Part shown: one piece after another, positions 29,539 to 62,562 of the stretch
How positions within the stretch are numbered: position 1 is the first letter of the stretch
Layout of the letters: each line of letters opens with the position of its first letter
IMG/VR virus record: IMGVR_UViG_3300030114_000522
From: a virus
Direction: 5' to 3' (one strand)
Length of the DNA: 64,000 nucleotides
Made by a program: the position numbers and the translations under genes
The notes under the pieces: generated by a model
The model's database searches: none
What the model was told of the DNA's origin: nothing
What the model saw: only the letters and a program-made list of their open reading frames with translations

Positions 29539-29740
29539 GAACTACAAAAAATAGTTCCTTTTCTTTTTAATATAATTATATATAGTATTTAATACCGTAT
29601 TAAAGAGTAGATAAAACTGTAATTTTATACGCTTTAAAAGTAAATTAAGAAATATATTAAATTACTAATATAAATGTATTGACTTGTAATGTCATAGTGG
29701 TATACTAATATTAATAAAAGAATTATATTATATAAAAGGG

Positions 29741-30106
29741 GTGCTGAATATGAAAAATGAATGGACTTTAGTGACTAAAGAAGCTTTTCAAGAATTTAAC
29801 AAAAAGAACTTTTTAGCAATAGTTAATCATAGAAAAGATTTTAAATTTTATGGAAATGCAAGTCATATAGCTTTATCAAAAATGAATATTAAAACTAAAG
29901 AATATTATATAATTAGTAGTAGAATAGAAACTCCAATAAAAGAAGAAAGATTCTTTTATGAAATAGAAGTAGAAAATTTAAAAAATGGTAATATATTTTT
30001 AACTAAAGATGATGCTTATGGAATTAATGAAATAGAAGCATATAAAGTAATGTGTGAAGAAAACTTAAAACTAGATTTTGAAGTATTAAATGCAAAAGTA
30101 ATTTAA
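29741..30106 (+). CDS. hypothetical early protein
   Basis: Promoter, RBS and terminator. Confidence 0.7.
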   Translation: MLNMKNEWTLVTKEAFQEFNKKNFLAIVNHRKDFKFYGNASHIALSKMNIKTKEYYIISSRIETPIKEERFFYEIEVENLKNGNIFLTKDDAYGINEIEAYKVMCEENLKLDFEVLNAKVI

Positions 30107-30184
30107 GGATATATTAAAAGTATATTCTTTTTCTATATTAATTAAATAACATATTAAATCACAAATAAAACGTAATACTAAGAT

Positions 30185-30282
30185 AAACAGAGTAAAACGG
30201 AGTATATTAAAGATAACTATTACTTTAATTGATTATATAGTTAAATTTGCCTGTTTTAAAGTTGTTAGTAGTTTGATATACT
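30185..30282 (+). promoter_or_regulatory. Conserved atypical promoter element, copy B
   Basis: Same upstream block; TTGCCT-24-TATACT. Confidence 0.65.
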
Positions 30283-30345
30283 AAATACATAGAAGAGATA
30301 CATAAAAGCAAAATAAATTAAAAGAAATAAAGGAGTATGATAATT

Positions 30346-30507
30346 ATGAAAATTATAAAAGTTGAAAAGAAAAATGATGATGAATATTTAGTAAGATTTG
30401 AAGGTGGAAATGTAGCCTTTTGGGGAAAAGATTTTATGAAAGATAAAATGAGAAAAGAAGAAGATACAAACAATTGGATAGAAATGTTTAATGCATTCAA
30501 TAGTTAA
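30346..30507 (+). CDS. small hypothetical protein (below ORF cutoff)
   Basis: AAGGAG RBS, 53 aa, followed by terminator. Confidence 0.6.
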   Translation: MKIIKVEKKNDDEYLVRFEGGNVAFWGKDFMKDKMRKEEDTNNWIEMFNAFNS

Positions 30508-30591
30508 GGAATTGTAGAAAACAGTTCCTTTCCTTTAAACTTTCAATAAAATCTTTAATTTATCACAATTTAAAAACATATTAAAAGGAGT

Positions 30592-30963
30592 ATGATAATT
30601 ATGAATAAAGAATTAAACAAGATTATAGATAATTTAGACAAAGAGAGAATGCAGGACTTACTTAAATGGATGGTAAATACACAAAGTGAAGAAACTAAAG
30701 AAAACATGTTAAAATATTTCAAAAATAATGAAAAATCAGATTTAATTTTTATTAAAAACATTTTAGAAATTGATGTTGATGGACTAAAAGGAATTAATCA
30801 TTATACTATAAAAGCAATGTATAATAAAATAGATGGAGAAGGCTACGCAACGCTAGTGCATAAGTTAATTGATGAAGTTGATTATACATGGAATAATATA
30901 GAACGTGACGGAGGAATTGCACAAGTTAATAGAGATTTTAAAGAAACTTATGGATTGGAATAA
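30592..30963 (+). CDS. hypothetical protein, paralog of 29317..29538
   Basis: Shared motif; RBS. Confidence 0.7.
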   Translation: MIIMNKELNKIIDNLDKERMQDLLKWMVNTQSEETKENMLKYFKNNEKSDLIFIKNILEIDVDGLKGINHYTIKAMYNKIDGEGYATLVHKLIDEVDYTWNNIERDGGIAQVNRDFKETYGLE

Positions 30964-30983
30964 ATTAGAAAGGAATTGATATT

Positions 30984-31166
30984 ATGAATATAAGACAAAA
31001 ATTACTTTACAGTTTTGCGAAATGGGATTATAGATATAATAAAAAGTACTTTAATACTAAAAAGACTTTTAAACGTAGCTATTTGTTTACAAAATTGAAT
31101 TATATACATATTAGTGATGAAGAAATAAAAAGTATATTAGAATGTAGAAGAGAAAAATGTTTATAA
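30984..31166 (+). CDS. hypothetical protein
   Basis: RBS; terminator. Confidence 0.6.
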   Translation: MNIRQKLLYSFAKWDYRYNKKYFNTKKTFKRSYLFTKLNYIHISDEEIKSILECRREKCL

Positions 31167-31417
31167 ATATTATTAAACCACATAAGGAGCTTGAAAGAGT
31201 TCCTTTTTAACGTCCATAATCAAAAACCTAGAATAACACTCTAAATCATTTAAAACCTCATACAAGCCATAAGAACGGTATTACATGTTATAATGTAACC
31301 ATCTAATAAAACTATATATAATAAAGTACCTTAACTAGTATACAACAGGGATAAACCCACATCAGAATAACAATATAAAATAAACTATAAAACATATTAA
31401 AATAACAATAAACTAAG

Positions 31418-31517
31418 AAAAGCGGAGCAAATGGAAGGTATTTTAAGCTAGTATTATTATAATATGTTATTATAGCGTTATTTGGTTGTTTTCTAATGTT
31501 GGTATTGATGGTATATT
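31418..31517 (+). promoter_or_regulatory. Conserved atypical promoter element, copy C
   Basis: Same upstream block; TTGGTT-24-TATATT. Confidence 0.6.
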
Positions 31518-31572
31518 TAATACATGGAAGAGATACAAACACAAATAACAAATTAAAAGGAGATGTATTAAT

Positions 31573-31770
31573 ATGACAACATATGTAAGAGATATAATAA
31601 ACGCAATGAGAGAAAACGCAACTAAAGTAATAATGGTAGCAATTAACAAATTATCTGAAATGGATATCGAATTACTAAAAGAATGTGAAAAGTTATATAA
31701 TGCAACAATCAAATATGCAACAGAATACGATTTATTTACAACTGATAATAATGCAGTAGTAATTGCTTAA
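31573..31770 (+). CDS. hypothetical protein
   Basis: RBS. Confidence 0.65.
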   Translation: MTTYVRDIINAMRENATKVIMVAINKLSEMDIELLKECEKLYNATIKYATEYDLFTTDNNAVVIA

Positions 31771-31825
31771 ATATATAATGAATTAGAATAATAGTAAAAA
31801 TATAAATTAAAAGGGGATATGTAAA

Positions 31826-32152
31826 ATGTTAGAAAAATTATTAATGGAAACTTTAAATATTAAAACTAGAAAAGAAATAAACTCAGATAGAATAAGACCA
31901 CTAGACTTAAATTCAGAATGTGACTTAGCTTATATAAGATGTCAATTTAAAAGATTTATAGCTAGAAATAAAACAGTAAATACAATTAAAGCATATTACA
32001 CTTGGGATAATGCTTATACTATTACTAGAGAGTCATTCGTAAAAGGTTGGGAAGGGTTAGAAGGAAGAGAAAATATAATTAAATCTCTAAGAACTGCAAT
32101 AATGGAATCTAAATCAGAAGGAACACCAGTATTTTCAATTAAAATTAGCTAA
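31826..32152 (+). CDS. hypothetical protein
   Basis: RBS. Confidence 0.7.
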   Translation: MLEKLLMETLNIKTRKEINSDRIRPLDLNSECDLAYIRCQFKRFIARNKTVNTIKAYYTWDNAYTITRESFVKGWEGLEGRENIIKSLRTAIMESKSEGTPVFSIKIS

Positions 32153-32236
32153 TATGTAGGCTTGTGAGTGTTATTTCCAGCACTCAAATACAAATATATT
32201 AAGTTAAAAATAAAAGGCTTAAATAAGCCATAAGGA

Positions 32237-32818
32237 GTGTTAAAAATGAAAAAATTAAATTTAAAAATCGGTGAAAAATATACAGTACTAGAAACTATGG
32301 ACTTATTACCAACTAGAATTTATGGAACTCTAAAAGGTTATTATTATAGTGATTATGCACAACATAAAAATGCTTTATATATTTATATACAAAGACCAAG
32401 GTATAAAAAAGTAAACAGAATAGTATTAACAACAGATACGTTTTATATTTTCAAAGGAGAATTTAAAGAGTGTTGGAACAAAGAAGAAAATTTTAATGGT
32501 AATGCAAGAATGACAGAACTAAAAAGATTTACATATGACAATTTAAAAGACAATGAAAATTTAGTATATAGTTTTCAAGGTAGAATAGATACATTTAGCA
32601 TCAATAACGACTTTGAGGGACTAATAGACAATACGGGAGACTTTATATATAACAACGGTATAAAGGTAAAAGAAGCATCTGAGAATGATAGTTATATTGA
32701 TTATATTAGAACTTTATTAACTAGATGCAATGTCAACGACTTATTAAATTATATTAAATTAGAAGGTTATACACTACTAGAAAACAGTATTAATAAGGCA
32801 GTAAAATATAACTGGTAA
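32237..32818 (+). CDS. hypothetical protein
   Basis: RBS; long downstream inverted repeat. Confidence 0.72.
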   Translation: MLKMKKLNLKIGEKYTVLETMDLLPTRIYGTLKGYYYSDYAQHKNALYIYIQRPRYKKVNRIVLTTDTFYIFKGEFKECWNKEENFNGNARMTELKRFTYDNLKDNENLVYSFQGRIDTFSINNDFEGLIDNTGDFIYNNGIKVKEASENDSYIDYIRTLLTRCNVNDLLNYIKLEGYTLLENSINKAVKYNW

Positions 32819-32966
32819 ATAATTTATATTGATATAGTTATCTAAAATAAGGTAGCTATATCAATATAAAAAACTAAAAAATATATTAAATAAACACTTG
32901 ACGGAATTTTAAAATCTATGTTATAATTAGATAACGAATTAAAACAATACTAAATATAAAATAAAG

Positions 32967-33446
32967 GTGGTTTTCAATATGAAAGTAAATGAATTTTTAA
33001 ATAAAATAGTAGAATCTTATAATAAGGAATTTCCAAATAGCAAAATAATTGCTCAACTACATAATAGCAGGGGAAAAAGTATATATATAAAATGTATGTT
33101 AGCAGGTAGTAAAGAAGAATTAAGTAACGGTTATATATATAATGATATGTTTTCAATAGTATTTTGGGGTCATAATTTACCAAATGATATTACATTAGAA
33201 AGTGAAATTCCTGAAAATTTAATACTAGAGTGTAGCGAAAAAAGTTATGTAACAGTTCCAAACGATGTTTATATGTGCTATGGAAGAAGAAAGTTGAATT
33301 ACAGAAAAACAACAGAAAGTGAAAAAATTATAAAATCATTAGATAACTTTTTCAAAAAATTAAAAATACAATTAAATGAGGATTTAGAAGAAAATAAAAT
33401 ACATGATAACTTCAAAGAATTATCAATAAACAAATTAAACAAATAG
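32967..33446 (+). CDS. hypothetical protein
   Basis: Promoter and RBS. Confidence 0.72.
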   Translation: MVFNMKVNEFLNKIVESYNKEFPNSKIIAQLHNSRGKSIYIKCMLAGSKEELSNGYIYNDMFSIVFWGHNLPNDITLESEIPENLILECSEKSYVTVPNDVYMCYGRRKLNYRKTTESEKIIKSLDNFFKKLKIQLNEDLEENKIHDNFKELSINKLNK

Positions 33447-33500
33447 AAAAATAAGGTTTGTGGTAATCCTTAAAACCACTAATAAAAAGGAGTTTTAAAA

Positions 33501-33935
33501 ATGAATAAATATTTAGAATTAAAAGAAAAACATTCAAAAGAGGTAAATATTTTTCCAATGATGTTTGCATTTAGTCAAAAACAATTTGATGAGGGTATGG
33601 AGAAACTTGGATTAAATAAAGATGATACAAAGCAAATAGTTTCAATTGGTGCTGGAGGATTTATTAAAAAAACTGATTCCGAACTACTCGATAAAATGTT
33701 TGAGGAACAAAGCAAAGAAAGAAAAGTAGCTATTGAGAATGATATTGACGGAACTAATTTCGTAAAAGATATGTTTAAATATGAATTAAATAATCACGAA
33801 TATTGCTATACTAGAGGCACTCAAGATACTTTAAATGCTTTAGGCTATACCATAGAGGAAATAAGAGCCGATAAGAAACTATTAAACGGTTTAAATCTAG
33901 CAATACAAGAGTGTAAAAATGAAGATAATGATTAA
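33501..33935 (+). CDS. phage hypothetical protein (FAFS..QF.E / YEL.NHEY motifs)
   Basis: Motifs recalled from Firmicutes phage proteins; RBS. Confidence 0.72.
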   Translation: MNKYLELKEKHSKEVNIFPMMFAFSQKQFDEGMEKLGLNKDDTKQIVSIGAGGFIKKTDSELLDKMFEEQSKERKVAIENDIDGTNFVKDMFKYELNNHEYCYTRGTQDTLNALGYTIEEIRADKKLLNGLNLAIQECKNEDND

Positions 33936-34098
33936 ATTAATTATAGAGATAGCATAAAAAACTATCTCTTTCTTTATCTAAAAAACTATAAAATAAATTA
34001 GAGAAATAGTAAATATATATTGACATTATATCTATAAAATGATAATATTAAATTAATCCAATAACACATTAAAAAATAATTCAAAAGGTGGTAATGAT

Positions 34099-34272
34099 AT
34101 GGATACAATAAAAAATTTAACTGATATAGAATTAGTAAAAAAATATAAATTAGCTAGAGAAAACTTTTTAAATTCAATAGACGGAACACAAGAAGAGAAA
34201 CAAACAGAAAATACATATTCTAAACTATCAGAAGAACTTAATAAAAGAAATTTAGATTTAAGAGATTTTTAA
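34099..34272 (+). CDS. small hypothetical protein (below cutoff)
   Basis: Promoter at 34020 and AAAGGTGG RBS. Confidence 0.6.
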   Translation: MDTIKNLTDIELVKKYKLARENFLNSIDGTQEEKQTENTYSKLSEELNKRNLDLRDF

Positions 34273-34317
34273 TATGTAAATACTATTAGAATTAATAAAA
34301 GGGAGATAATACAATAA

Positions 34318-34518
34318 ATGCAATTATATGCAAATGAGATAGTTCAAACAATTAAAGTTTGTAAAGAAACTACTATAGCAATAATTAAAAGTAGATTAAC
34401 AGATGAAGAAATTAATATGATTGGAATTTTTGCAGTAGAATATAAAAAATCAATAATATTTGGAACTACTCATGATGTTATATTCAATAAAGATAGTAAT
34501 ATACTAGTCATTAAATAG
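34318..34518 (+). CDS. hypothetical protein
   Basis: RBS. Confidence 0.6.
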   Translation: MQLYANEIVQTIKVCKETTIAIIKSRLTDEEINMIGIFAVEYKKSIIFGTTHDVIFNKDSNILVIK

Positions 34519-34668
34519 CCTTAATCCAAGCTTTAAGCATAACAGGATAACTATATTAGATTAACTTTATAAATGCTTAGACGGTCAATTAAAGCTATTT
34601 TATAAGCTAATAACGTATTAAAACATATAGGAATTTAGTAACTAAAATAAAAAATATGAGGTGATTCA

Positions 34669-34869: not shown

Positions 34870-34997
34870 GTATAAATAAAAAAATTAAATAATAGATTAA
34901 AATATATAAAATATTTCTTGACATTAGATTAATACTTCTATATAATTGTAAATAAGATAAGAAATTACATAAAAGAAAAAATAATATTTGAGGGAGT

Positions 34998-35360: not shown

Positions 35361-35560
35361 GGAACTGGAGAAATCCAGTTTTTTATTACTTAGATATAAG
35401 TTATCAAATACAACATAATGAGTTAAGATAAAAAGTCTATTTTATTTGGAATTTTAAAGAAAAATATTTTAGTATTATTTTAATTTGTTATTGACTTTAA
35501 TTGAAAACAATGATAATATAGTAAATAAGAAGTACATAACGAATTAAAAAAATATGAGGA

Positions 35561-37568: not shown

Positions 37569-37574
37569 CAATAA

Positions 37575-37631
37575 GTAAGTTTGATAAGGAACGTGAGAGT
37601 CGCCGAAACTGGTGTAATGCCAGTCACTTAC
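37575..37631 (+). ncRNA. Type I hammerhead ribozyme (U3-A8 core variant)
   Basis: Stem I GUAAGU/ACUUAC, core UUGAUAA, imperfect stem II, GAAA, stem III CUGGUG/UGCCAG, GUC cleavage triplet ending at 37625. Confidence 0.75.
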
Positions 37632-38629: not shown

Positions 38630-38730
38630 TAGATTAAAAAGCATATAAAACATGAATTTCATCACAACATTAATTTTTGATAATTTTCTACTTATAAGAT
38701 ATAATATTAAATGAAACGGAGTGAGTAATA

Positions 38731-38990: not shown

Positions 38991-39941
38991 ATGGAATTTG
39001 AGATAAAAGAAAAATGTACTATATTAAATATTTATTATCAAAAAGAACATAGATATATTGATATTATAATTGATGCAGAAGATTTAAAAAAAGTAAAAGA
39101 TAAAAAAATTTATATAGCTTTAGAAGATGGTAAATATAAACCTCGAATATATAATGGAACACATTATATGAGATTACAATCATTTCTAACACCAAATTTA
39201 AAAATATCATATTCTAAAAATAGAAATCATTGTGATTGTAGAAAAGATAATATTACTTCTTCACCTTTAGAAGTAATAGGATTAGTTGAAGAAAATTCTA
39301 TAAAAATGAAAGCGTCTTCCCTTAAAATGAGTAAAGAAAAAAGAGAAAATATAACTAGGGGTTCAAGGGAAAACAGATACACAAAAGATTATTCTAACAA
39401 ATTACAGGAAGATAAGTTGGGTGAAAAGAATATAAGTGCATTATTAACATGGGATTTAGTTAATCAAATTAGAAAAATTTCAATAGACGAAAATATATCT
39501 CAATATGAATTGGCAAATATGTTCAATGTAGGAAGGGCAACAATTGCAGATATAATTAATTATAGAACGTGGACAGTTAATCCAAAACTTAAAGAAAGAG
39601 TATATAAAGATGATAATATTAAAGTTATTAAGAAAATAAATGATATTAGTGATGTGCAATTCAGTTATAATGATATGTATTTTGATAATATTTTACTAAT
39701 GTTTGAAGATGAATTTTTATATATAGAAAAATTATCTATACAAGGATTAATTTATATAGAGCAAAGAAACATTGATGGGAAATGTTTAGCATCAGTAGAT
39801 ATTTATATTCCAGTAAACAAAAGTAAGCTTATGAAAAAGTTTTATAGTATTGCTAAAATGAATCCTAGAAGTAAGGGAAGGGAATATTTTTATAAGTTTA
39901 TAGATAAAGCTTTTAATCAATTAACTGATAAGGAAATATAA
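38991..39941 (+). CDS. degenerate HNH-like plus HTH DNA-binding protein
   Basis: NRNHCDCRKDNI HNH-like remnant; SQYELANMFNVGRATIADII HTH. Confidence 0.5.
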   Translation: MEFEIKEKCTILNIYYQKEHRYIDIIIDAEDLKKVKDKKIYIALEDGKYKPRIYNGTHYMRLQSFLTPNLKISYSKNRNHCDCRKDNITSSPLEVIGLVEENSIKMKASSLKMSKEKRENITRGSRENRYTKDYSNKLQEDKLGEKNISALLTWDLVNQIRKISIDENISQYELANMFNVGRATIADIINYRTWTVNPKLKERVYKDDNIKVIKKINDISDVQFSYNDMYFDNILLMFEDEFLYIEKLSIQGLIYIEQRNIDGKCLASVDIYIPVNKSKLMKKFYSIAKMNPRSKGREYFYKFIDKAFNQLTDKEI

Positions 39942-40131
39942 AAATATAATATTCTTTATCAGTTAAGATTAATATAGAAGTCGTTAAAATACTCATTATA
40001 CTTCCAGTGAAAAGAAACTAGATAATTAATTAAAATAATAGTTAAAAAGTATAGACAAGCATAAAATATAAGAGTATACTAAAATTAGATTAAGAAATAG
40101 ATTAAAATAATATAGTAGGAGTTGTTGAGAT

Positions 40132-40473
40132 ATGAAATATAATTATGAAACTCAAAGAAAAAATGCTTTTATAATATGCAATGGTAAACTATATGAAGGA
40201 GATATTCATTTTGATTGCATGTTTAAAGCTTTAGATGAAGTAGTGGGAGAAGATGAATTAGACTATAATTTTGATAAATATTTTAATATGGAAGAAAAAG
40301 AACTTTCTAAATTATTAGGAGATGATATTCCCAAGGGAGAAATAGCAATGGTAGATAATATCAAAATTTTAATATTATACGCAGAAGAAGAATTGAAAAA
40401 AGTTAAAGAATATTATAATAATTTTCCAACATACCTACATTCAATATATGGAGAAATAGAAAAGATAGCATAA
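40132..40473 (+). CDS. hypothetical protein
   Basis: Promoter and RBS. Confidence 0.7.
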   Translation: MKYNYETQRKNAFIICNGKLYEGDIHFDCMFKALDEVVGEDELDYNFDKYFNMEEKELSKLLGDDIPKGEIAMVDNIKILILYAEEELKKVKEYYNNFPTYLHSIYGEIEKIA

Positions 40474-42874: not shown

Positions 42875-42917
42875 GTTAATAAATAGTAAATTTTATTTAA
42901 AGTGGGAGGGTGAGATT

Positions 42918-43187: not shown

Positions 43188-43503
43188 TAGGAGGTAACTA
43201 CATAATGAAATATAATTTCTTCAATCTAATAATAGAATACTGTAATAACAATCACATAAACGCTGATTTAAAGTTCATAGGAACTATTAATGATAAGATA
43301 AATGAGTTACTTAAACGTGGTACAGACGAGAACTGGATTGAGAATAATATTAGTTGCTTGTTGTAATTATAGTAGTATTGTATAAAAAATAAATCTAATA
43401 ATATATTAAAATAATATAAAAATGTATTGCAATTAAGGTTGAGTATGATATAATAGATATAAGAAGTAAATTAAGGAAAATAATTCTAAGGAGTGATATT
43501 ATT

Positions 43504-43767
43504 ATGGCAAGTTTAAAAGAATTAAAAGAAAATAAATTATATGAAGCCACTAGTAGGAATAGGTATTATAATATTAATTATGATTCTGCTCCACATTATG
43601 CAAATCCATTAATTTGTAGTAATTGCAAGCATGATTTTAGAACAGTAGATACGACATATAGTAATTTTAATGAGATTATAGATTATGATTATTGTCCAAA
43701 GTGTGGTGAAAAGTTTACTGAATTTATTAATAGAGATGGAAATATAACTTCTAAGAACAAAAAATAA
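43504..43767 (+). CDS. Zn-ribbon protein
   Basis: CSNC...CPKCG. Confidence 0.7.
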   Translation: MASLKELKENKLYEATSRNRYYNINYDSAPHYANPLICSNCKHDFRTVDTTYSNFNEIIDYDYCPKCGEKFTEFINRDGNITSKNKK

Positions 43768-44127: not shown

Positions 44128-44368
44128 TTTAGAAGAGTATAAGGATGGTGTATTAAATATGAATTATGAAGAAATAATTAAATATGTCCAATCTAGGTGT
44201 AAAGAAAATATTTTTAAAGAAATAGATAATTTCCTAACTAATTTAGATGATACTTGTGACGATACTATAGAACTGGAAAATAATAAGTTCAAGATAAGAA
44301 AAGAGATTATAAAAACTGATTATAATAATGGAATTATAGATTGTAAATATGATGTAATATTACAATAA
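44111..44368 (+). CDS. hypothetical protein
   Basis: Start probably 44159; stop codon is part of the boundary motif. Confidence 0.62.
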   Translation: MKKLNNLEEYKDGVLNMNYEEIIKYVQSRCKENIFKEIDNFLTNLDDTCDDTIELENNKFKIRKEIIKTDYNNGIIDCKYDVILQ

Positions 44369-45250: not shown

Positions 45251-45309
45251 ATAACAGACAATAAAACAAGAGTTTCTACGACGGTTACTTAGAAAAAGGA
45301 GAGTATTAA

Positions 45310-45618: not shown

Positions 45619-45675
45619 TCTGAACTATAAATATGTTTAAAAGAGTTATTTCATAAAGAATTAGGAGGGAAATAA

Positions 45676-46020
45676 ATGAGTAGTTGGACACATATTATAG
45701 CTACAATTGATGTAGAAACTTTTATAGAAGATATAGAAATAAAAACAAAAGTAGAAGATATATTAAAAGATGCCCCTAAAATTACAGGAAGTGAGGGGAA
45801 TGCAGATATATTTGTGAATATATTAAGTGATTTTAATATATCTAAATGGAATTTTGAAAAAGATAAATTTGACCATTTTCAATCAAGAGTAGTAATAACA
45901 ATTATGGGAGATTTAAGAGATAGAGAAATAAAGAAAACAGGAAAAGAATATTGCAAATTTTATAATTTTATTAAAAATAAATTTTGGATAAGAAATTCTA
46001 CTTATAAAATAATAACTTAA
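45676..46020 (+). CDS. phage hypothetical protein (MS.WTH...TGSEG...GDLRDR motifs)
   Basis: AGGAGG RBS; motifs recalled from phage proteins. Confidence 0.72.
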   Translation: MSSWTHIIATIDVETFIEDIEIKTKVEDILKDAPKITGSEGNADIFVNILSDFNISKWNFEKDKFDHFQSRVVITIMGDLRDREIKKTGKEYCKFYNFIKNKFWIRNSTYKIIT

Positions 46021-46054: not shown

Positions 46055-46300
46055 ATGTCTAAAACAATTAAATGTAAAAATTGTGAAAAGGATAGTAAAT
46101 ATACAATAAATAATTGTTGTATAAATATAGCTGATGTATATGATAAAACTGATTTTAAATATATAATGAGTGCCGATGGTGGTTCATTATTTCTTTGTAA
46201 TGAATGTTATAACAAAGTTCAAGAATTGGCAAAACAAATATTAGATATAGTTAAAGAAGAAGATATAATGATAGGAGATTTATTATGTGGAGATAAATAA
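46055..46300 (+). CDS. Cys-rich hypothetical protein
   Basis: CKNC...CNEC. Confidence 0.65.
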   Translation: MSKTIKCKNCEKDSKYTINNCCINIADVYDKTDFKYIMSADGGSLFLCNECYNKVQELAKQILDIVKEEDIMIGDLLCGDK

Positions 46301-47290: not shown

Positions 47291-47644
47291 ATGGAGGAAT
47301 GTAAAATGTTAAAAAATATAAAAACAATTAAATGCCCTATATGTGGATGTAAAGATATAATTGAAGAAAGCATAGATACTAATTATGATAGAGCCGAAAT
47401 ATTGCAACATTGTAACGGTACTAGATGGGAACATAGAAAATTTTTATGTGGTTATCATGTGCAATATGAACCAAATTTTTCAAAAGAAGTTGAGAATAAA
47501 TATTCAGAATGTAAAAATAATTTAGAAGTTATTGCTAGAAAAAAGAAAGAAAAACTAGATAAGGAAAATCTTATAAAGTTATTAAATGAAAATAATATTT
47601 CAGAATCAATAATTGAAAAAGTTGAAAGATATTGTTTATATTAA
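47291..47644 (+). CDS. Zn-binding hypothetical protein
   Basis: CPICG...HCNG...CG. Confidence 0.7.
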   Translation: MEECKMLKNIKTIKCPICGCKDIIEESIDTNYDRAEILQHCNGTRWEHRKFLCGYHVQYEPNFSKEVENKYSECKNNLEVIARKKKEKLDKENLIKLLNENNISESIIEKVERYCLY

Positions 47645-47693
47645 AACTATCATTTCATACAGAGTTAAAAATAAATTAAAAGGAGTATAAAAA

Positions 47694-48095
47694 ATGAATA
47701 CGAAAACATTTATAAGTGAAAATGGATTGGATTTGGTTATTAAAAGTAAAAAGTCAGCTATAATTTTTGAAATAGGAGGAGTCAACACAGAAAAGTATAA
47801 ATTTATATTTACATTTAAGCCTCATGTATTTAAATATCTATTTGAATACATAGAATTTGAAGCAAGAGAATGTTGGAGTGGATTAGAATTAAAAGAGGCT
47901 GATAGTCTTAGTTCTGATTATAATGAATATTATGATAAAGAATTTGATAATGAAGGATACTTAAATATTAAAAATAATAGTTTGGAGATAGAAAGACCAA
48001 TACTAGAGAATAATAGATTATATAAATTTGATAAAAAGAAGGTACAATCTTTTCTTTATGATTTTAATAAAAAATTAACTATAGAAAATATATAA
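47694..48095 (+). CDS. hypothetical protein
   Basis: RBS. Confidence 0.7.
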   Translation: MNTKTFISENGLDLVIKSKKSAIIFEIGGVNTEKYKFIFTFKPHVFKYLFEYIEFEARECWSGLELKEADSLSSDYNEYYDKEFDNEGYLNIKNNSLEIERPILENNRLYKFDKKKVQSFLYDFNKKLTIENI

Positions 48096-48278
48096 AGTGT
48101 TTCTTAGCGTAGGCTATCACTTAAAACACTAAGCCTACATTCCATAAGAAAAAAATAATTAATAAAAACTAGATAATATATTAAAGTAACACTTGCATTA
48201 ATTTAGTGTTGTGTTATAATTTAGAAAAGAAGGAAATACATAAACAAAAGTAGAAATAAATATAATAATAAAAAGGAG

Positions 48279-49280
48279 TTGATTACTATGAGTTGTTCAT
48301 TAGTGGTAGAGAATAAAAATTATCCTGAAAGTGTAATTGAATTTACGAATTACTTAGGAACTATAAAAAATAAATCTAAGAATACTATAACTGGATATAA
48401 AAGTGATTTAGGACTATTTTTTAAATTCTTACAAGTACACAAAAATAGTAAAAAGTATTCAAATATTATTGATATAGAAGATATAGATATAACTAATATA
48501 GGGGTTAGATTCATTCAATCTATAGAATTAAAAGATTTATACGCATTTATGAATTATTTAGAGAATGAAAGAAAAAAGAAAAATGGAGAATGTGCTAGAG
48601 CTAGGAAAGTCGCTACATTGAAGTCATATTATAATTATATATTTAAAAAAGCAAAAATTGTAAAAGAAAATATAGCTGAAGAACTTGAAGCACCTAAAAT
48701 AAATAGAAGACAACCAAGTGTATTAGATATAAATGATAGTAAGCATTTATTAGAATCATTAGATAGTGAAGATAAGTTCTATCAACGAGATTATTGTATA
48801 TTAACTTTGTTATTGCATTGTGGAATGAGGCTTGAAGAACTAACAAATATAAAACTTGTAGATATAAAAAATGATGTATTAACAATTATTGGAAAGGGTA
48901 GTAAAGAAAGAAAAATATATCTCAATGATACATGTTTAAAGGTAATAGATAATTATTTACAAATCAGAGACGATTCTAAGTGTGATAAAGAAAATAAAAA
49001 ATTCTTATTTATATCTAGATTAAATAGACATATACACAAGAATTCAATTGAAGCTTTAGTAAAAAAACATTTAGGTAATGCAGGGTTTGATTTAGATAAG
49101 TACCATACACATTCAACAAGAGCCTCGTATGCTACTATGATGTATAATGCAGGAATTGACGTTGAAACACTCGCTTCCAGTATGGGACATAGTGTAAGCA
49201 GTACAACTAGAATATATCTAAATATAAATGAAAATAATTTAAGAAATGTTTCAAAAATAAATCCATTGAATAATTTATAA
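48279..49280 (+). CDS. XerC/D-like tyrosine recombinase, catalytically intact
   Basis: GMRLEEL (R), GKGSKER (K), HSTR (H-x-x-R), MGH, TRIY (Y). Confidence 0.92.
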   Translation: MITMSCSLVVENKNYPESVIEFTNYLGTIKNKSKNTITGYKSDLGLFFKFLQVHKNSKKYSNIIDIEDIDITNIGVRFIQSIELKDLYAFMNYLENERKKKNGECARARKVATLKSYYNYIFKKAKIVKENIAEELEAPKINRRQPSVLDINDSKHLLESLDSEDKFYQRDYCILTLLLHCGMRLEELTNIKLVDIKNDVLTIIGKGSKERKIYLNDTCLKVIDNYLQIRDDSKCDKENKKFLFISRLNRHIHKNSIEALVKKHLGNAGFDLDKYHTHSTRASYATMMYNAGIDVETLASSMGHSVSSTTRIYLNINENNLRNVSKINPLNNL

Positions 49281-49292
49281 AGGAGTATAGAT

Positions 49293-49481
49293 ATGAATAT
49301 TAAAGAAAATGTGGTTCAAGGAAAATTAATGAGATATTGTGCTACAAGTATACATGGTTATGTAGATATATTTGATAGAATAAAGGAAATTTACATGGGA
49401 TATCATTTCGATTATTATGATAAAATTAGAGCAGAAGAAATCAGTTATCAGCTTGAAGAAAAATACAGAGATAGTATATAA
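49293..49481 (+). CDS. hypothetical protein
   Basis: RBS. Confidence 0.62.
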   Translation: MNIKENVVQGKLMRYCATSIHGYVDIFDRIKEIYMGYHFDYYDKIRAEEISYQLEEKYRDSI

Positions 49482-49766: not shown

Positions 49767-49988
49767 TAAAGAGGAGAATATTGATGAAAGTAAAAGCAAT
49801 ACTTGAATTAGATATGCCAGAAAAATGTATAGAATGTAGTCTTGTGGTTAATGAAAAATTTTCGATTATATGGTGCAAAATTACTACAGAAGACTGTAAA
49901 GCCCCTTTTAAAAATAAGAATGATAATTGTCCATTAAAAATAAAAGAATAAGTAAAATAGGAAATTCAAGTGGTTAAGGAGTAAACAT

Positions 49989-50605: not shown

Positions 50606-50665
50606 TAAAAATCTGATTTTAAAGACTTATTTAAAATAGTTGTTAATTGGTTAATTGAGAAAGGA

Positions 50666-51097: not shown

Positions 51098-51552
51098 ATT
51101 CTTAGTTTTATTGATAGTTATTATCAATTAGAAAGGAGAAAATTATGAATAATTTAGATATAGCAGGACTATTAATTACTTATTCAGAAAAATGTAGAAA
51201 AGCAAGAGACGCAGAACATCTTAAAGAGATTGTAAGAGATTTAAAGAAAGAATTAAATTCAGATGAAATCAAAAAATTAAGAATAATTGGTTCATAGTAT
51301 TTAGAACATAAACTATTATAAATAATAAAATAAAGGAGTGAGATAATTATGACTAAATCAACAGTTAAAAATTTAGCTAATAAATTAGGATATGACCTAG
51401 AAGTAAATTATAGTGCAATATATTTAATTAAAGATGATATGAAAATATTTAGGAAAAGTTATTCTTTAGCTTATAATTATCTTTATAGGTTAGAACATAG
51501 AAGATAAAATATATTAAAGTAACAATAAATATGAGAAAGAAGGAAATAAACA

Positions 51553-54144: not shown

Positions 54145-54275
54145 TTATAGTCACCATTATATAGCAAGGACTTCTAATAACACTTAATATCAAGATAAAT
54201 CAAATATTTTATATTAATATTAGAAGATAGTTTATAGACTAGGAATACAAATTTTTCCTAGTCCTTTTAATCCAA

Positions 54276-56780: not shown

Positions 56781-57863
56781 ATGTCTGATATATTTTATGG
56801 AATTTATGAAGACGATAGAAAACACAATCTAATAGATAAATATAAAAAGAATAAGATTACCTTTATAAATGAAAGAGAAGATTTTGCTGAAGCTACTAAA
56901 GATAATTATTTAAAACTATTTAAGAGCTATGTATATTATTTAGAAAATATTAAAAAGAAAGATTTATATGATTTTGATAAAATGGAAATAGTAGAATTAT
57001 TAAAATCAGCACCAACTACAAGTACAAAAACAAAAGCTAGTTTATTCTCAGCTATAAATGGTTATGAAGAATGGGCAATAAAAAGAGGGTTTAGACTTAC
57101 AAGTAATCCATGTGATGGGATAAATTTAAAAGAAACATTAGTAGTTAATAAACAAGCAGTAATACACAATTATTATAAATTACCTGATTTTTGGGAAATA
57201 ATTAAAAAGCTAGAGACCAAAAATGACATAAATAATCTTATAATATTAATACTATTAAGATATGGCATAACTATGAAACTTCAACCAGGTTTAAAATGGG
57301 AAGATATAAATAGAGAAGAAAAGAAACTATATCTATTTGATACAGATAGAGTTCTACTAACTATATTAGATATAGATGATACTTTTATAGAATATATAGA
57401 CAAGACTTATAATTTTAATAACTATTCTTATAAAATGGCAACTAGACCAAAGCTAACAGGGGGAAGAACTGAATGGCAAAAAGAAGTTAACTATCAACTT
57501 GGAGAGTATGTATTAAAGACTACTAATATGCAAGCTGATGATAGCAATATGGTATCAGATTCAGTTATATATAATAGATATAATGCAGTATTCAATAATA
57601 ATAAAATGGATGATGGAGAAGTAATTAAAAGGTTATCTATTTTAGATTTATATAGAAGTAGAAAATTTGATGAACTTTATAAGATTTATAATTTAAAAGG
57701 AGAACTAAGCGTAAAAGATATAAAGGTAGTTAATGATAAAATTAATTTAAATTCTAAACCTTCAATTAATACAGTATTAAGAAAAGATTTTGAATTAATA
57801 TCTGGAATTGAAATAGTAATCGATAGGAACGGTGAAAAAAGAAAATCTAAAAATAAACAATAA
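56781..57863 (+). CDS. MrpR/YopR(SroF)-like master repressor with degenerate tyrosine-recombinase fold
   Basis: Core-binding-like N-terminus ending SNPC; LLRYGI..LKWEDIN and LYRSRKF lack the R/HxxR/H/Y set. Confidence 0.6.
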   Translation: MSDIFYGIYEDDRKHNLIDKYKKNKITFINEREDFAEATKDNYLKLFKSYVYYLENIKKKDLYDFDKMEIVELLKSAPTTSTKTKASLFSAINGYEEWAIKRGFRLTSNPCDGINLKETLVVNKQAVIHNYYKLPDFWEIIKKLETKNDINNLIILILLRYGITMKLQPGLKWEDINREEKKLYLFDTDRVLLTILDIDDTFIEYIDKTYNFNNYSYKMATRPKLTGGRTEWQKEVNYQLGEYVLKTTNMQADDSNMVSDSVIYNRYNAVFNNNKMDDGEVIKRLSILDLYRSRKFDELYKIYNLKGELSVKDIKVVNDKINLNSKPSINTVLRKDFELISGIEIVIDRNGEKRKSKNKQ

Positions 57864-58007
57864 TTAAGTAAAATAGCGAGGTTAGGGGATTAATTTTCTC
57901 TAATCTTATTTAACTTAAAAATATATTAAAATAATTACAAAAAAGTGTTGACATCTATATACTTATAATATATACTATTAATTGTAAGGTAGTTATAGAT
58001 ACTACTT

Positions 58008-58805
58008 ATGGCAATAAACAATAATATATTAAAATATGAGGTGAAGGATATGAATAAAACATTACAAGAACAATTACAAGAGGTAAAAAATACTATGATT
58101 GGGGAAACTAAAGATAATAATAAATATGTTGGGGAACATATTGAAAATAGAGTTTATGATGAATTTGGTAACATATTAGATTTAAAGGATATTAAAAGAG
58201 GAGATAGCTTACTTATTGATTTAGGTAATAATAGTGTTGGTTCTGAACAAGCAGGTACACGTTGGGCTATCTGTATTCAAAATAATGTTGGGAATAAATA
58301 TTCTCCTACTATTATAGTAGCTTTTGCGACAAGTAAATTAACTAAAAGTCAATTACCTACACACACGATAATTAAAGCTGGTCAATTTGGTTTTAAAGAA
58401 GATTCGATTATATTACTAGAACAAGTTAGAACAATAGATAAAAAACGTATTATAGCAAGAAAAGGACATGTAGATAATGCAACAATGCAGTTAATAGATA
58501 ATGCAAAAGATATATCTATGAGTGAATTAAAACCAAAGTCATTACTAGAAAGACTTCAAAAAGATATGAGAGATTATATTATTACTACTTTAAAAGATGT
58601 CAATGAATATGAAATAACTGTTGAAAAAATGAAATATGAGGATATGGAAAAAAGTTCTATATCATTTATGATTAAGAAGAAACTTTTATTATTGGATAAA
58701 TTTATAAAGTATTGTAAACAAAATCAATTAGACTATGAAGCTTTTTATAAATTAAATCACGGGGTTAATAAAGAGGTATTAGAAATGTCAATAGCTTTAG
58801 ATTAG
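58008..58805 (+). CDS. mazF: MazF/PemK (EndoA-like) endoribonuclease with N- and C-terminal extensions, no adjacent MazE
   Basis: KRGD...GSEQAGTR...QNNVGNKYSPT..LPTH..EQVRTIDK; start probably 58050. Confidence 0.88.
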   Translation: MAINNNILKYEVKDMNKTLQEQLQEVKNTMIGETKDNNKYVGEHIENRVYDEFGNILDLKDIKRGDSLLIDLGNNSVGSEQAGTRWAICIQNNVGNKYSPTIIVAFATSKLTKSQLPTHTIIKAGQFGFKEDSIILLEQVRTIDKKRIIARKGHVDNATMQLIDNAKDISMSELKPKSLLERLQKDMRDYIITTLKDVNEYEITVEKMKYEDMEKSSISFMIKKKLLLLDKFIKYCKQNQLDYEAFYKLNHGVNKEVLEMSIALD

Positions 58806-59235
58806 AATAATACTATAACATATTAAATTAAACAACATTAGAGGATAAGACGTAATCGACAGAATAACTTTTGGAGATGATAACGTGATTTGTAAAAATA
58901 AGTATAATAAGCATCAACTAGGTATAGAAGATAATATAGTTGATGCTTATTTGTCATACATAATTATATTTAAAAATAAACTTAATAATTAATTAAAATA
59001 ATACTAAATAAACTATTGACATACATAACCATAAGAGTATAATGGAATTATAAATCAAATAACTAATTAAAATAATAGTGAGGTGAGAATGATGTTAAAT
59101 GTTATATTGAAGAAGTTAAAAGGATTATTACATAGTGATTTATGGGAAACTGAAATGTTAAATGAAATCAACATGGAGTTATATAAATAAGAGTCTGTGT
59201 AAAATTAACAGTTTATTCAAATAATAAATTAGAAA

Positions 59236-59667
59236 ATGGAGGAATTAATAATGAAGAATATTTATATGATTAAAGAAACGTGTCCTATGTGGAATGATGG
59301 AACTGGTGTTGATTATAAGGTAATAAAACCTTATGTATTTTTAAAACAAAAAGAAGCTGAAACTTGTCGGCTAGATTTTGAATGGATATCTGCTGATAGG
59401 GTATTATGTACTGAATATGAACTAATAAATATTGAAGTGGATAATGAAGAAGAATTAAAAGAAATTAATGTTGAAGGTGAATTAATTATAATTAGAAATG
59501 TGATTAATGGAGATTATGAAGAAGAATTTAGATATGATATTCATTCTTGGGAGCAATTAGATTCAGCAGGAAGAATAGGTAATGATTATAGTGATGAAGA
59601 GTTTGAAACAGATGGACTATGTGAAAATATTATATATGAAGCACTATATGATATCGAGGAGGAATAA
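59236..59667 (+). CDS. hypothetical protein
   Basis: RBS. Confidence 0.7.
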   Translation: MEELIMKNIYMIKETCPMWNDGTGVDYKVIKPYVFLKQKEAETCRLDFEWISADRVLCTEYELINIEVDNEEELKEINVEGELIIIRNVINGDYEEEFRYDIHSWEQLDSAGRIGNDYSDEEFETDGLCENIIYEALYDIEEE

Positions 59668-59848
59668 TTAAAATGTGGGGAGAATTTATGGAAAAAGAAA
59701 AGTCATTAGAAGAAATTATTCAAGATTATATAAATGAATATCAAAAAGAATATAATGAAACCTTAAATGATTCAGAAAGGGCATATGCTAATGGAAAAAT
59801 ATATTCTTTAAGAGTATTGTTAAGAAAGTTGATGGAGGGATAATTAAA

Positions 59849-60041
59849 ATGAACTATAAAGAAAGAAATGATTATACTAGAATGATTGACCTATCAATAG
59901 GAACAAAGTTTTATGTTGTAAACGGTGTTTTGGGAAGGTAAAATAATTGAAAAGGATAGTATTAAATATATTAAAAACGAAGTAGGCGATTTTGAAATAG
60001 ATGATAATGATAAACTTATTATTTCTATTTTGAATAAATAG
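59849..60041 (+). pseudogene. Small gene broken by a +1 frameshift
   Basis: ATG 59849 frame stops early, +1 frame continues WEGKIIEK... to TAG 60041; span is 64 codons plus 1 nt. Confidence 0.5.
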
Positions 60042-60053
60042 GAGGACGTTAAA

Positions 60054-60377
60054 ATGTTTAAATTTTTGAAATTAAAAACACCAAAAGAGAAATCGGAATA
60101 TAATAAAGAAAAAATTATTAATAAAAATGTTAAATTGATAAATAAAAGCTATAGTATGGAAATTAAATCCATGATATCTAAGGGTATTATATATACAAAT
60201 CATAAGATGGCTTTGTTACCATTTACATATGGCAATGTTAATTCTTTTAGGGAGGAATCTGTACAGAAAGGTTTAATAAAATTGAGAGATAAATATAAAA
60301 ATAAAGGGATTATATTTGAAATAACATGGACAGGTTGCCAAAATAGTTACATTGGAATAAGTATTGAATTTATATAA
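60054..60377 (+). CDS. hypothetical protein
   Basis: AGGAGG RBS. Confidence 0.7.
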   Translation: MFKFLKLKTPKEKSEYNKEKIINKNVKLINKSYSMEIKSMISKGIIYTNHKMALLPFTYGNVNSFREESVQKGLIKLRDKYKNKGIIFEITWTGCQNSYIGISIEFI

Positions 60378-60396
60378 ATAGGAGGAGAGATTTTAA

Positions 60397-60579
60397 ATGA
60401 AAAATATAATTGAAGGATTATTATTTATAGGTATAGTAATTGCATATGCATTATTCATGGCATTAATATTATTTAAATTTTTTACGTGGGCTATGTTTAT
60501 TGGTTTTTATATTAAGATAGTTATAATAGGAATAATTTTAGTAGTTGTTAGTTATTACATTGGAAAAATATTAGGATAA
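60397..60579 (+). CDS. small two-TM membrane protein
   Basis: Hydrophobic; RBS. Confidence 0.68.
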   Translation: MKNIIEGLLFIGIVIAYALFMALILFKFFTWAMFIGFYIKIVIIGIILVVVSYYIGKILG

Positions 60580-60592
60580 GGAGAAGATTAAA

Positions 60593-60907
60593 ATGGAATT
60601 AATAGATTTTAAAACGGAATTAGAAGATGCTAGAAATAAGGATAAAAACATACATGCAATATTTAATAAAATAGTTGAGGACAATCTAGATAATTTAAAG
60701 CAGTTTTTAGAAGAAGGATATAATGTAAGGATTATAGAAGATGAAGAACATTTTTTAAAAACATTACACTTTTTATCAAGAGAATCAGAAAATTGGAATT
60801 ATGATTTTTCTTTTAGTAACATAGAAAATAAATGTGCGTTTGATGATAAAGAAGCCATAACTAAAATATTAACTGAATTTGTAATTGAATTAATAAGAGA
60901 AAAATAA
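60593..60907 (+). CDS. hypothetical protein
   Basis: RBS. Confidence 0.7.
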   Translation: MELIDFKTELEDARNKDKNIHAIFNKIVEDNLDNLKQFLEEGYNVRIIEDEEHFLKTLHFLSRESENWNYDFSFSNIENKCAFDDKEAITKILTEFVIELIREK

Positions 60908-60936
60908 TAACTTGAAGAAAGTGAGGAATAAAAATA

Positions 60937-61206
60937 ATGAGTAAAGAAATAAACATACCTTTGACATGGGAAGAAATAGACGCAATTACAATATCATTAA
61001 GATTAACTAATCAAGCATTTAAAGGTAATATACGTGATGAATTAGAAGAGAAAATAAGTAATTATAGTATGATTGCAAAACAAGCTAATAATAAACAAAC
61101 AATAAGTTGTAAGGAAGATTGTATTTATTCAGGTAGACCTACATATAAATTTCCATGTGATAAATGCATAAGAGAAAATTTTAAATTTTATAAAAATAAA
61201 GAATAG
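60937..61206 (+). CDS. hypothetical protein
   Basis: RBS. Confidence 0.68.
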   Translation: MSKEINIPLTWEEIDAITISLRLTNQAFKGNIRDELEEKISNYSMIAKQANNKQTISCKEDCIYSGRPTYKFPCDKCIRENFKFYKNKE

Positions 61207-61222
61207 AGGAGAGATAATTAAT

Positions 61223-61909
61223 ATGGGCATGTTTGATGAAATATATGGTGAGGTAAAATGCCCTCATTGCAAGAAAATAATTGGATTTGAAACACAAACA
61301 AAAGAATATGATTGTATGATGGATAGATATACTATTGGTGATTACATGGAAAAAGGAAATGTTACGTCAGCTAGTTTGATTGAAAAAGATTGGTATTGTA
61401 CAGATTGTAAAAATCCATTTGACGTTAGTATAGTTTTTGTAAGAGGACAAATTATTAAATTTATTAATAATAATGAATTTAAAGATATTAATGTAAATAA
61501 GTTAGATAATATTGAAGAAGGTTTAGGGCATAGACTTGAATATGAAGAATTATGTAGACAAGGTGTAGGATATGCAAAAGAAACAGTAGATTTAGAAGAG
61601 CATCCTAAAAATGTAGGTAGTAGAATTAAAGTATTAAATCAAGATTGGTTAATTACAGAAATATATAAAGAAAATTTAGTTACTGATAAAGGTAGTAGAG
61701 TATATTCTTTGCATAAATTATGGTTTGAAAATGGTTTTGTTTATAAAGTTACTAATAAACTAGGAGATAGATTTATTAGGGTAGCTGAACAGATAGGTTT
61801 TAAAGGTGGATATAGCGTATTTTATGATGAAGGAAATTATAAAGAATACGACCATAGGAGTCCTCATAATTTTATAATACAATTTGGTTGTGAATTGGAG
61901 GAAATTTAA
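61223..61909 (+). CDS. Zn-binding phage protein (MGMFD..CPHC..QTK motifs)
   Basis: MGMFDE, CPHC, CTDC. Confidence 0.72.
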   Translation: MGMFDEIYGEVKCPHCKKIIGFETQTKEYDCMMDRYTIGDYMEKGNVTSASLIEKDWYCTDCKNPFDVSIVFVRGQIIKFINNNEFKDINVNKLDNIEEGLGHRLEYEELCRQGVGYAKETVDLEEHPKNVGSRIKVLNQDWLITEIYKENLVTDKGSRVYSLHKLWFENGFVYKVTNKLGDRFIRVAEQIGFKGGYSVFYDEGNYKEYDHRSPHNFIIQFGCELEEI

Positions 61910-62108
61910 AATGACGACACAAGAAAATTTTAATAAAATAGAATCTGAACATGGATGTGGATGTTGGAAATTATGTTGGGAACACGCATGTTCATGTTCT
62001 ATAACTATAGGTAATAAAGGACTAAGAGAAGATATTTACAATGGATTTATAGAAGAAAACAAACAAATTGCTGAAGAATATGATAGGGAGTGTGGCTATT
62101 ATGAATAA
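61884..62108 (+). CDS. Cys-rich hypothetical protein
   Basis: Start probably 61911 after GGAGG. Confidence 0.62.
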   Translation: MVVNWRKFKMTTQENFNKIESEHGCGCWKLCWEHACSCSITIGNKGLREDIYNGFIEENKQIAEEYDRECGYYE

Positions 62109-62406
62109 TTATATAAGTATTGATGTATATAAACCAAGAAGTTCTATTATTTATGGAGATGTTTTTATATTAAATATTCCAGATGAATTACATGATGTAG
62201 GTTACGAAGATGAATGTTGGGAAAGTGATAGTAATTTATTTGAAGAATATGAGGTAGCATTAAAATTACAAGGACTAGAAAAAGGATTATATAGATTAAA
62301 TATAAAACCTTATAATGAAAAGTCTTTAAATACAGTTATAAGACATGCAAGAGAATATAAAAAATATGAGTTTTTTCAAATTATAGATTGTGTTAAATTA
62401 GTATAG
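62068..62406 (+). CDS. hypothetical protein
   Basis: Start probably 62101. Confidence 0.65.
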   Translation: MLKNMIGSVAIMNNYISIDVYKPRSSIIYGDVFILNIPDELHDVGYEDECWESDSNLFEEYEVALKLQGLEKGLYRLNIKPYNEKSLNTVIRHAREYKKYEFFQIIDCVKLV

Positions 62407-62562
62407 CTAAATAGTTATAAAAGTATAGAATTAATTGAAAATATTCAAAATTAAGAATGAGGGTATAACTAGGTTGTAGAGTTTTAAAAAGTGGGTAAAA
62501 CTTAGTTTTTATTGCATTATTGAAAATGATTATCAATTAAAAAAACAAGGAGTAGATGAATA

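Follow-up and report, generated by a model that had tools for sequence, protein, structure and literature searches.

The sequence analyzed here, hereafter called the window, is a stretch of 64,000 nucleotides from the viral record IMGVR_UViG_3300030114_000522, and the element in question is a short dyad, the junction site, that recurs at the boundaries of its genes, among which lies the gene of an intact tyrosine recombinase. The window has a G+C content of 24% and comes from a large temperate phage or phage-plasmid, SPbeta-like, of peat metagenomes. According to the simple gene calls made within the analysis, the genes beyond 20 kb are almost all small and located on the plus strand. A gene for a YonO-type single-chain RNA polymerase occupies positions 3-2609 of the minus strand, where it is truncated by the window edge; the protein is 51% identical to the enzyme of the Bacillus phage BUCT082, a Spbetavirus, and 29% identical to that of the Clostridium phage c-st. 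The window also encodes a replication initiator, a tubulin-like protein, an FtsK-like protein, a DndB-like and MrpR-like pair, and a MazF-like protein, and it carries an IS607/TnpB element. A recombinase identical to that of the window was found on a 198-kb contig, and the window stretch occurs in 24 peat runs. The five contigs with the identical recombinase are identical to the window, so that there is zero variation between them.

An earlier note on this DNA had listed 13 exact copies of the sequence TAAAW-N7-TTYAT and three weaker ones (45262, 49953 and 50606). All 13 exact copies are present, the three weak copies are near-matches, and the listed copies are either outside coding sequence or overlap a stop codon only, in agreement with the note's placement of them at gene boundaries. 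The first TAA of the site serves as the stop codon of the upstream gene at 44366, 46018, 47642, 49479 and 51095, again as the note had it. Two intergenic copies on the plus strand (21015 and 54196) and a facing pair at 14873 (+) and 14905 (−) had been overlooked. The window as a whole contains 32 matches, compared with 19.2 ± 4.5 in shuffled sequence, and none of 100 shuffles reached 32. On the plus strand, 16 of the 19 matches are non-coding or overlap a stop codon only, although such DNA makes up 24% of the window; the other three are in coding sequence. The strongest control for the motif is its spacing, since the non-coding DNA of the plus strand between 20 and 64 kb has 15 copies at N7 and 0-3 at each other spacing from 0 to 20. 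A chance origin of the motif is excluded.

Most of the 17-mers lie inside operons, 20-35 nt upstream of a start codon, and the sites bracket small genes that are preceded by ribosome-binding sites. Three sites (29612, 30547 and 35429) come after terminator-like hairpins, and two of these (29612 and 35429) are also upstream of promoters; such placement favors a role in DNA over one in RNA. The high density of sites at 42-51 kb, to which the earlier note had drawn attention, is true of this window, but in the 141-kb relative described below the element is spread over the whole record.

The anatomy of the site was determined from 77 sites pooled from the window and the 141-kb relative. The firm core is TAAA-N8-TTYA, which resides within a degenerate dyad of roughly 26 bp with a consensus near CCAAaTAAAA-N6-TTTTAtTTGG and a center of ~6 bp. 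The two-fold symmetry extends to ~±13 bp, with a depletion of A at −4/+21, an excess of C/G at −3/+20, and exclusively A/T at −5/+22. The right inner arm is better conserved than the left, and the outer arms are degenerate. Positions 11 and 12 of the site are also kept, as A and T, and the copies in one genome share only ~10 fixed bases. The sites in the window are oriented with the genes, as seen from the asymmetric TTCA variants, of which there are seven in this orientation and none mirrored. Inverted arms about a variable center constitute the arm-center-arm layout of Xer-type core sites, and the symmetry of the pooled sites supports the recombinase-core-like layout that had been proposed.

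A reading of the site as a hairpin or terminator was rejected, the folding energy being 0 to −4.7 kcal/mol (z −1.4 to +0.9) and the TTCAT sites being unpaired. No compensatory change was seen, as A2 is constant when position 15 is C, and Rfam gave no family match at the sites. Partner copies of the centers elsewhere, as in a guide or antisense array, were not detected above control. A sigma-70 promoter scan was uninformative at 24% G+C, with 93 promoters found against 94 expected.

The relative, G001, is a 141-kb IMG/VR record (L039-L046) of a related phage that was reached through a small window protein, and the whole record was used. It contains 55 non-coding copies of TAAA-N8-TTTA, or 60 with TTCA allowed, compared with 5-17 when the spacing is changed. 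The sites extend from the early genes as far as the late structural genes and are often positioned 19-26 nt upstream of a start codon, between the stop codon and the ribosome-binding site. All 60 centers are distinct, and the centers within a genome all differ. Similar sites are present in the Bacillus Spbetaviruses BUCT082 and SPR, right after late-operon stop codons and in early intergenic regions. The spread throughout G001 and the occurrence in Bacillus Spbetaviruses contradict the view that the system is local to the recombinase. A search of viral contigs with the exact 17-mers returned 24 hits that were mostly due to chance, a relative accounting for one of the 24.

Two further observations concern the non-coding DNA of G001. 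Its late region (64-138 kb) has 29 copies of a box, AAATTAATAGAA, usually ~12 nt past a junction site and ahead of the ribosome-binding site. The box is absent from the window and may be a promoter or operator word of G001's own. The longest exact non-coding match of the window to G001 is 40 nt (37571-37610, corresponding to G001 13402), for which Rfam gave no match at the gathering score.

The centers of particular sites are conserved between the two genomes. Five of the 17 window sites have a center that is identical in G001 at 8/8 positions, the null chance of which is 0.9% per site. With two additional pairs that are identical at 7/8 positions, these sites form an unbroken collinear chain, comprising 44366, 45638, 46018, 47642, 49479, 50606 and 51095 in the window and 27391, 28528, 31581, 32409, 33844, 35381 and 35680 in G001. 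The identity is limited to 17-19 nt, and the 45 nt on each side are at the random level. The proteins encoded on either side of the paired sites are unrelated (z near 0), with a weak hint of similarity in one pair (z 3.5). Between 38.6 and 54.2 kb, 7 of the 35 window genes have a homologue in G001, and the slot 45638-46018 holds one gene in the window versus nine in G001.

The same pattern extends to a third lineage, L050, the recombinase of which is 54% identical to that of the window and in which 2 of 29 genes are shared. It has four sites with 8/8 centers, arranged in the same order as in the window. The slot between the 49479-type and 50606-type sites is occupied by three gene sets in the three lineages, mutually without BLASTP similarity, and site 49479 itself has one center in four lineages, with differing left flanks. 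Additional center matches were found between L009 and L050 and between L054 and G001. The fixed order of the sites in three lineages speaks against the shuffling of cassettes that the earlier note had suggested. A further argument, that the centers are better kept than the arms, was dropped as circular, because the pairs had been picked by their centers and the arms are fixed by the definition of the motif.

In contigs of an abundant relative from the peat runs, homology to the window is lost or regained at three points: 47658, where a site has its last base; 51105, which falls within a site; and 45636, which precedes a site by 2 nt. In one contig, which matches another G001 site (59311), homology to the window returns from 51105, inside site 51095. 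Homology thus ends at or inside the sites, which bears out the proposal that they bound gene blocks replaced between related phages. In L008, an 86% relative, the 62-aa gene that precedes site 49479 in the window is lacking, and the site comes directly after the recombinase stop codon. Because the sites are far more conserved than the genes between them, and unrelated DNA abuts both sides at seven consecutive positions, the sites are preferred joints of gene replacement.

No circular cassette junctions were seen in the contigs aligned to the window; the only backward joint in these contigs, from 51282 to 45636, was considered as a circle junction and rejected, as it follows the gene order of G001. 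In the same peat runs, the related phage of the 141-kb type is by far the more abundant, with a word depth of 120-190 compared with 3-15 for the window phage (46055-46300, 46515-46628 and 51145-51282). Both phages therefore co-occur and could meet in one host. The 25-nt leader at 51118-51142, which connects site 51095 with the start codon, is identical at G001 59334, where it precedes an unrelated gene, and a shorter version is found at 62527.

Positions of the junction sites, the recombinase gene and the promoter-associated boxes in the window
Feature	Position	Strand	Remarks
Two facing exact copies (14873 +, 14905 −) beside the IS607/TnpB element	14873-14921	.	Exact match
Junction site, exact match	21015-21031	+	Non-coding; without clear counterpart in G001
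Junction site between terminator-like hairpin and promoter region	29612-29628	+	Center 7/8 identical to G001 12530
Junction site after terminator-like hairpin, next start codon 28 nt on	30547-30563	+	Exact match
Junction site between terminator-like hairpin and promoter region	35429-35445	+	Exact match
Junction site	38646-38662	+	Center 8/8 identical to third lineage, L050 2499
Junction site	42880-42896	+	Possible diverged counterpart G001 25138, likeness judged by eye
Junction site, TAA is the upstream stop codon	44366-44382	+	Orthologue G001 27391; center 8/8, collinear
Weak copy	45262-45278	+	Right arm ill-fitting; no counterpart found; no further support
Junction site	45638-45654	+	Orthologue G001 28528; 19-nt exact island, flanks unrelated; contig joint 2 nt before
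Junction site, TAA is a stop codon	46018-46034	+	Orthologue G001 31581; 16/17 identical, collinear
Junction site, TAA is a stop codon	47642-47658	+	Orthologue G001 32409; 19-nt exact island; contig of the relative diverges right after 47658
Intact Xer-like tyrosine recombinase, candidate enzyme only	48288-49280	+	R-K-H-R-H-Y present; within slot 47642-49479
Junction site, TAA is a stop codon	49479-49495	+	Orthologues G001 33844, L050 10928, L008 1261
Weak copy, right arm degenerate	49953-49969	+	Without clear counterpart
Weak copy in the window owing to its last base; relatives have the full motif	50606-50622	+	Orthologues G001 35381, L050 11880; center 8/8 in three lineages
Junction site, TAA is a stop codon	51095-51111	+	Orthologue G001 35680; center 7/8
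Junction site	54196-54212	+	Possible counterpart G001 37241 (6/8), likewise before a minus-strand helix-turn-helix gene
Junction site	59200-59216	+	Exact match
Junction site	62496-62512	+	Exact match
ATATATTAAAATAAT-type boxes	57917-57935, 58020-58038; gaps 39939-40134, 43364-43506, 48093-48290, 58990-59100		

The recombinase encoded among the sites retains all six catalytic residues of its family, R-K-H-R-H-Y. Its best model scores are those for XerC (180 bits) and XerD (176 bits), both below the respective cut-offs, whereas the two integron-integrase models gave 67 bits (cut-off 265) and 56 bits (cut-off 435). The protein is 52% identical to a chromosomal Clostridium XerC. Each of the clostridial-type lineages examined has an intact version of the Xer-like recombinase, and G001 encodes further recombinase-fold proteins. 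The XerC-like recombinase of the window is only a candidate for an enzyme that might act on the sites.

Shared arms together with a locus-specific, conserved center are the signature of a protein that reads the arms and of a strand exchange that needs matched centers, and this combination leads us to read the sites as crossover points. Taking the motif, its symmetry, its distribution, the conserved centers and their order, and the unrelated flanks as what was directly observed, we infer that crossovers occurred within the sites and were made by a recombinase, either the neighboring XerC-like protein or another. On the strength of these genome comparisons, we give an even chance to the proposal that the sites are ordered, address-bearing crossover points for the exchange of gene modules between related SPbeta-like phages. 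According to this proposal, the sites would be designated crossover points with common arms, and each center would function as an address. When two related genomes are present in one cell, an arm-binding protein, most likely a tyrosine-type recombinase, would exchange strands solely between sites with the same center. The first such event would join the two genomes, and a second event at the next matching site would resolve them, with the intervening module having been swapped. Because the centers differ within one genome, its own sites should not recombine together, and no deletion should result. The full version of this scheme would be a natural counterpart of recombinase-mediated cassette exchange, in which dozens of incompatible sites with shared arms and centers of their own allow a phage tyrosine recombinase to swap modules between co-resident relatives, in register and without deletions in its own genome. 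We propose this version tentatively, as a possibility that falls short of an even chance.

Several points weigh against the crossover-point proposal. No recombination event or product was seen in the contigs examined. Known recombinase sites have arms of 11-13 bp, next to which those of the element are short and degenerate, and the element is also present between late structural genes and in the Bacillus Spbetaviruses. Two tyrosine-recombinase genes of the latter phages were checked and showed no BLASTP similarity to the window recombinase; with the motif present there, the window enzyme cannot be the family-wide common factor. Judging from the gene content, turnover is not entirely site to site. 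The 62-aa gene was inserted beside site 49479 without a site on its far side, and homologues of the genes at 46055 and 51145 occupy different slots in G001. Between SPR and phi3T there are ~22 homology ends, one of which falls exactly on a site and the others away from sites, and these are too few to weigh. The orthologous pairs were, furthermore, defined by the identity of their centers, so that diverged centers are under-counted, and those at 38646, 42880 and 54196 look diverged.

One could envision other functions for the sites. They might be docking sites for a dimeric DNA-binding protein of the phage, with a regulatory or architectural role at gene junctions, such as control of transcription, silencing or organization of the chromosome, to which they would owe their conservation. 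As the sole conserved islands between diverged phages, they would then provide incidental microhomology for general recombination, whether phage-encoded or RecA-dependent. The two-fold symmetry of the site is consistent with such a role, as are its spread throughout G001, including the late region, and its presence in Bacillus Spbetaviruses whose tyrosine recombinases, at least the two checked, are dissimilar. The set position past the stop codon and ahead of the ribosome-binding site, at 19-26 nt from many start codons, the location of late-region G001 sites ~12 nt before a recurring box, and that of some window sites upstream of promoters can be added to these points. However, the lineages are so diverged that their shared proteins are only 42-54% identical, and docking does not account for the identity of centers that the protein would not contact. 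In addition, a stretch of 17 bp offers little for homologous recombination, and shared genes contain longer exact matches; still, it is at seven consecutive sites that unrelated DNA is found on both sides. We consider docking an unlikely explanation, although it must be taken seriously. An integron-like system, as put forward in the earlier note, would have the neighboring tyrosine recombinase excise, capture and shuffle single-gene cassettes at interchangeable sites. The sites do follow stop codons, with five supplying the TAA, and bracket small genes preceded by ribosome-binding sites; an intact recombinase is located among them, and two small genes reside in different slots of G001. The analogy breaks down at the enzyme, which is Xer-like, with XerC and XerD as its best models and 67 bits against the integron-integrase cut-off of 265. 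It breaks down also at the sites, which are 17-26 bp long, form no stable hairpin and include no attC-like folded element. The centers within a genome all differ, the site order is fixed in three lineages, the genome-wide array has no attI-like head, and circular junctions were not seen in the contigs; an integron-like system is thus very improbable.

The two remaining explanations, to which we attach hardly any probability, assign the sites to gene expression. In one of them, which the note had itself offered as its alternative, the sites are operators of a recombinase-fold repressor (the MrpR/YopR-like protein encoded at 56781-57863) and the counterpart of the SPBRE element. MrpR of SPbeta, which adopts the fold of a tyrosine recombinase, binds to a repeated element of 15 bp at ~10 promoters (PMC10516654), and the window encodes an MrpR-like protein. 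The sole repeat common to the early promoter regions of SPR, however, is ACAAAAAATATGTAT, one copy of which adjoins the −35 box, with another close to the ribosome-binding site. We infer that ACAAAAAATATGTAT of SPR is SPBRE, the sequence of which is absent from the text of PMC10516654. The window element in that promoter position is the ATATATTAAAATAAT box, which immediately precedes the −35 element of sigma-A-like promoters and is often repeated close to the ribosome-binding site. Repressor binding fits the ATATATTAAAATAAT boxes that flank these promoters better than it fits the 17-mers, and the match in position to the presumed SPBRE of SPR makes the ATATATTAAAATAAT box the likelier operator of the MrpR-like repressor. 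Moreover, the 17-mers are mostly within operons that have no space for a promoter, SPR has TAAA-N8-TTTA sites besides its ACAAAAAATATGTAT box, and the two clostridial-type phages share the 17-mers yet differ in their promoter boxes. The other explanation is that the sites act in RNA or transcription as weak terminators, processing sites, or promoters of the YonO-type polymerase. Their orientation with transcription (seven TTCA variants versus none mirrored) and their fixed distance before ribosome-binding sites would agree with this, and the phage encodes a YonO-like polymerase, an enzyme whose promoters are undefined (PMC5467207). The weak folding and unpaired TTCAT sites described above, the failure of A2 to co-vary with C15 and the lack of an Rfam match do not. 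Little RNA is expected at several of the sites, which have a terminator-like hairpin upstream and a promoter downstream, and a variable center is atypical of the promoters of single-subunit polymerases. Conserved centers with unrelated flanks would also be left unexplained.

Other features of the window concern the phage itself. The tubulin-like protein, a member of the TubZ/PhuZ family encoded at 10808-11896, adjoins the replication initiator, and the pair suggests that the phage can be kept as a plasmid. The IS607/TnpB element occupies 15253-17050 and has a RAGATH-18 RNA at its end (15140-15208, minus strand; 50 bits versus a cut-off of 45); a copy of the same insertion sequence type is found beside the recombinase gene in L008. 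Between 17051 and 19357, there are 2.3 kb without any open reading frame of at least 50 codons, with scattered short repeats inside, and here the orientation of the genes flips. No close relatives of the window were detected in the phage and plasmid collections searched, and clostridial plasmids matched only in single genes and in an IS607 element. Viral and genome contigs yielded nothing when scanned with a pattern from the recombinase, nor did metagenome contigs when the pattern was a DndB-like alignment. An exact 30-mer of the window was absent from the viral contigs searched, and the MrpR-like protein had no tblastn match among phages.

How very diverged phages exchange modules in register is a debated aspect of phage mosaicism, with chance illegitimate joins followed by selection on one side and dedicated junction sequences on the other. 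The large temperate SPbeta-related phages studied here possess ordered junction sites with centers that outlast almost all of the surrounding genes. If the sites are indeed center-matched crossover points, they would explain why accessory genes are replaced so rapidly at fixed positions, the principle of Xer/dif modules would be extended from plasmids to phages, and the sites would represent a natural set of mutually orthogonal recombination sites. Because similar sites are present in SPR and BUCT082, the idea is directly testable in Bacillus subtilis.

Comparison with known systems places the junction sites among several arrangements of short elements and exchangeable genes. As in integrons, they are located at the 3′ end of small, mostly promoterless genes and often overlap the stop codon. 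Unlike an integron, the window lacks an attI-Pc head, folded attC elements (57-141 nt) and a match to IntI, and its sites have not been reordered. The sites stand on both sides of the recombinase gene, which itself sits in a slot, and they are spread throughout G001, and although two genes are found in different slots, the order of the sites is fixed in three lineages. The PeSL cassettes of T4-type phages, reportedly described by Arbiol et al. in 2010, are said to have conserved intergenic elements bordering exchangeable genes, and the boundary sequences of lambdoid phages in the module theory of Susskind and Botstein are likewise said to be short conserved borders of such genes. The junction sites are alike in being short conserved intergenic elements that border exchangeable genes where phage genomes are plastic. 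Those elements, however, are longer, near-identical within a genome and used by homologous recombination, whereas the centers described here are locus-specific. Heterospecific lox and FRT sites, engineered for cassette exchange by Cre and FLP, have shared arms and different centers, and each recombines with its own kind only. Two differing sites of this type let a cassette be swapped without deletion, a principle that the junction sites resemble. In the lox and FRT arrangement, however, the arms are 13 bp long, the enzyme is known and the design comes from the laboratory; the sites described here are a natural array of dozens with no more than a candidate enzyme. SPBRE is similar in being a short repeated intergenic element of SPbeta-like phages that is bound by a recombinase-fold protein, but the sequence presumed to be SPBRE is another word, located beside promoters in ~10 copies per genome.

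The closest known system is that of the Xer pdif/dif modules of Acinetobacter plasmids, which use the host XerC and XerD. In these modules, XerCD recombination takes place between pdif sites with identical 6-bp spacers (PMC13141974), and single modules are replaced between plasmids if the spacers match on both sides, by way of a cointegrate and its resolution (PMC13141974; PMC6449649). Both systems have many short arm-center-arm sites flanking small gene modules, and in the window, identical centers flank unrelated contents in two or three lineages, a likeness that is drawn from the comparative pattern alone. In pdif sites, the arms are an XerC box and an XerD box of 11 bp each, well conserved and similar to the host dif, whereas those in the window are short and degenerate. 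No dif-like site was found in the window at up to 3 mismatches, the query having been a B. subtilis-type dif core that may not be that of the host. The pdif sites alternate in orientation, forming C and D modules, whereas the window copies all point one way. In addition, pdif spacers recur within a plasmid, where inversions and deletions have been detected; in the phages, the centers within a genome all differ and their order is conserved. Finally, the carrier in the present case is not a plasmid dependent on host XerC and XerD but a phage that encodes an Xer-like enzyme of its own.

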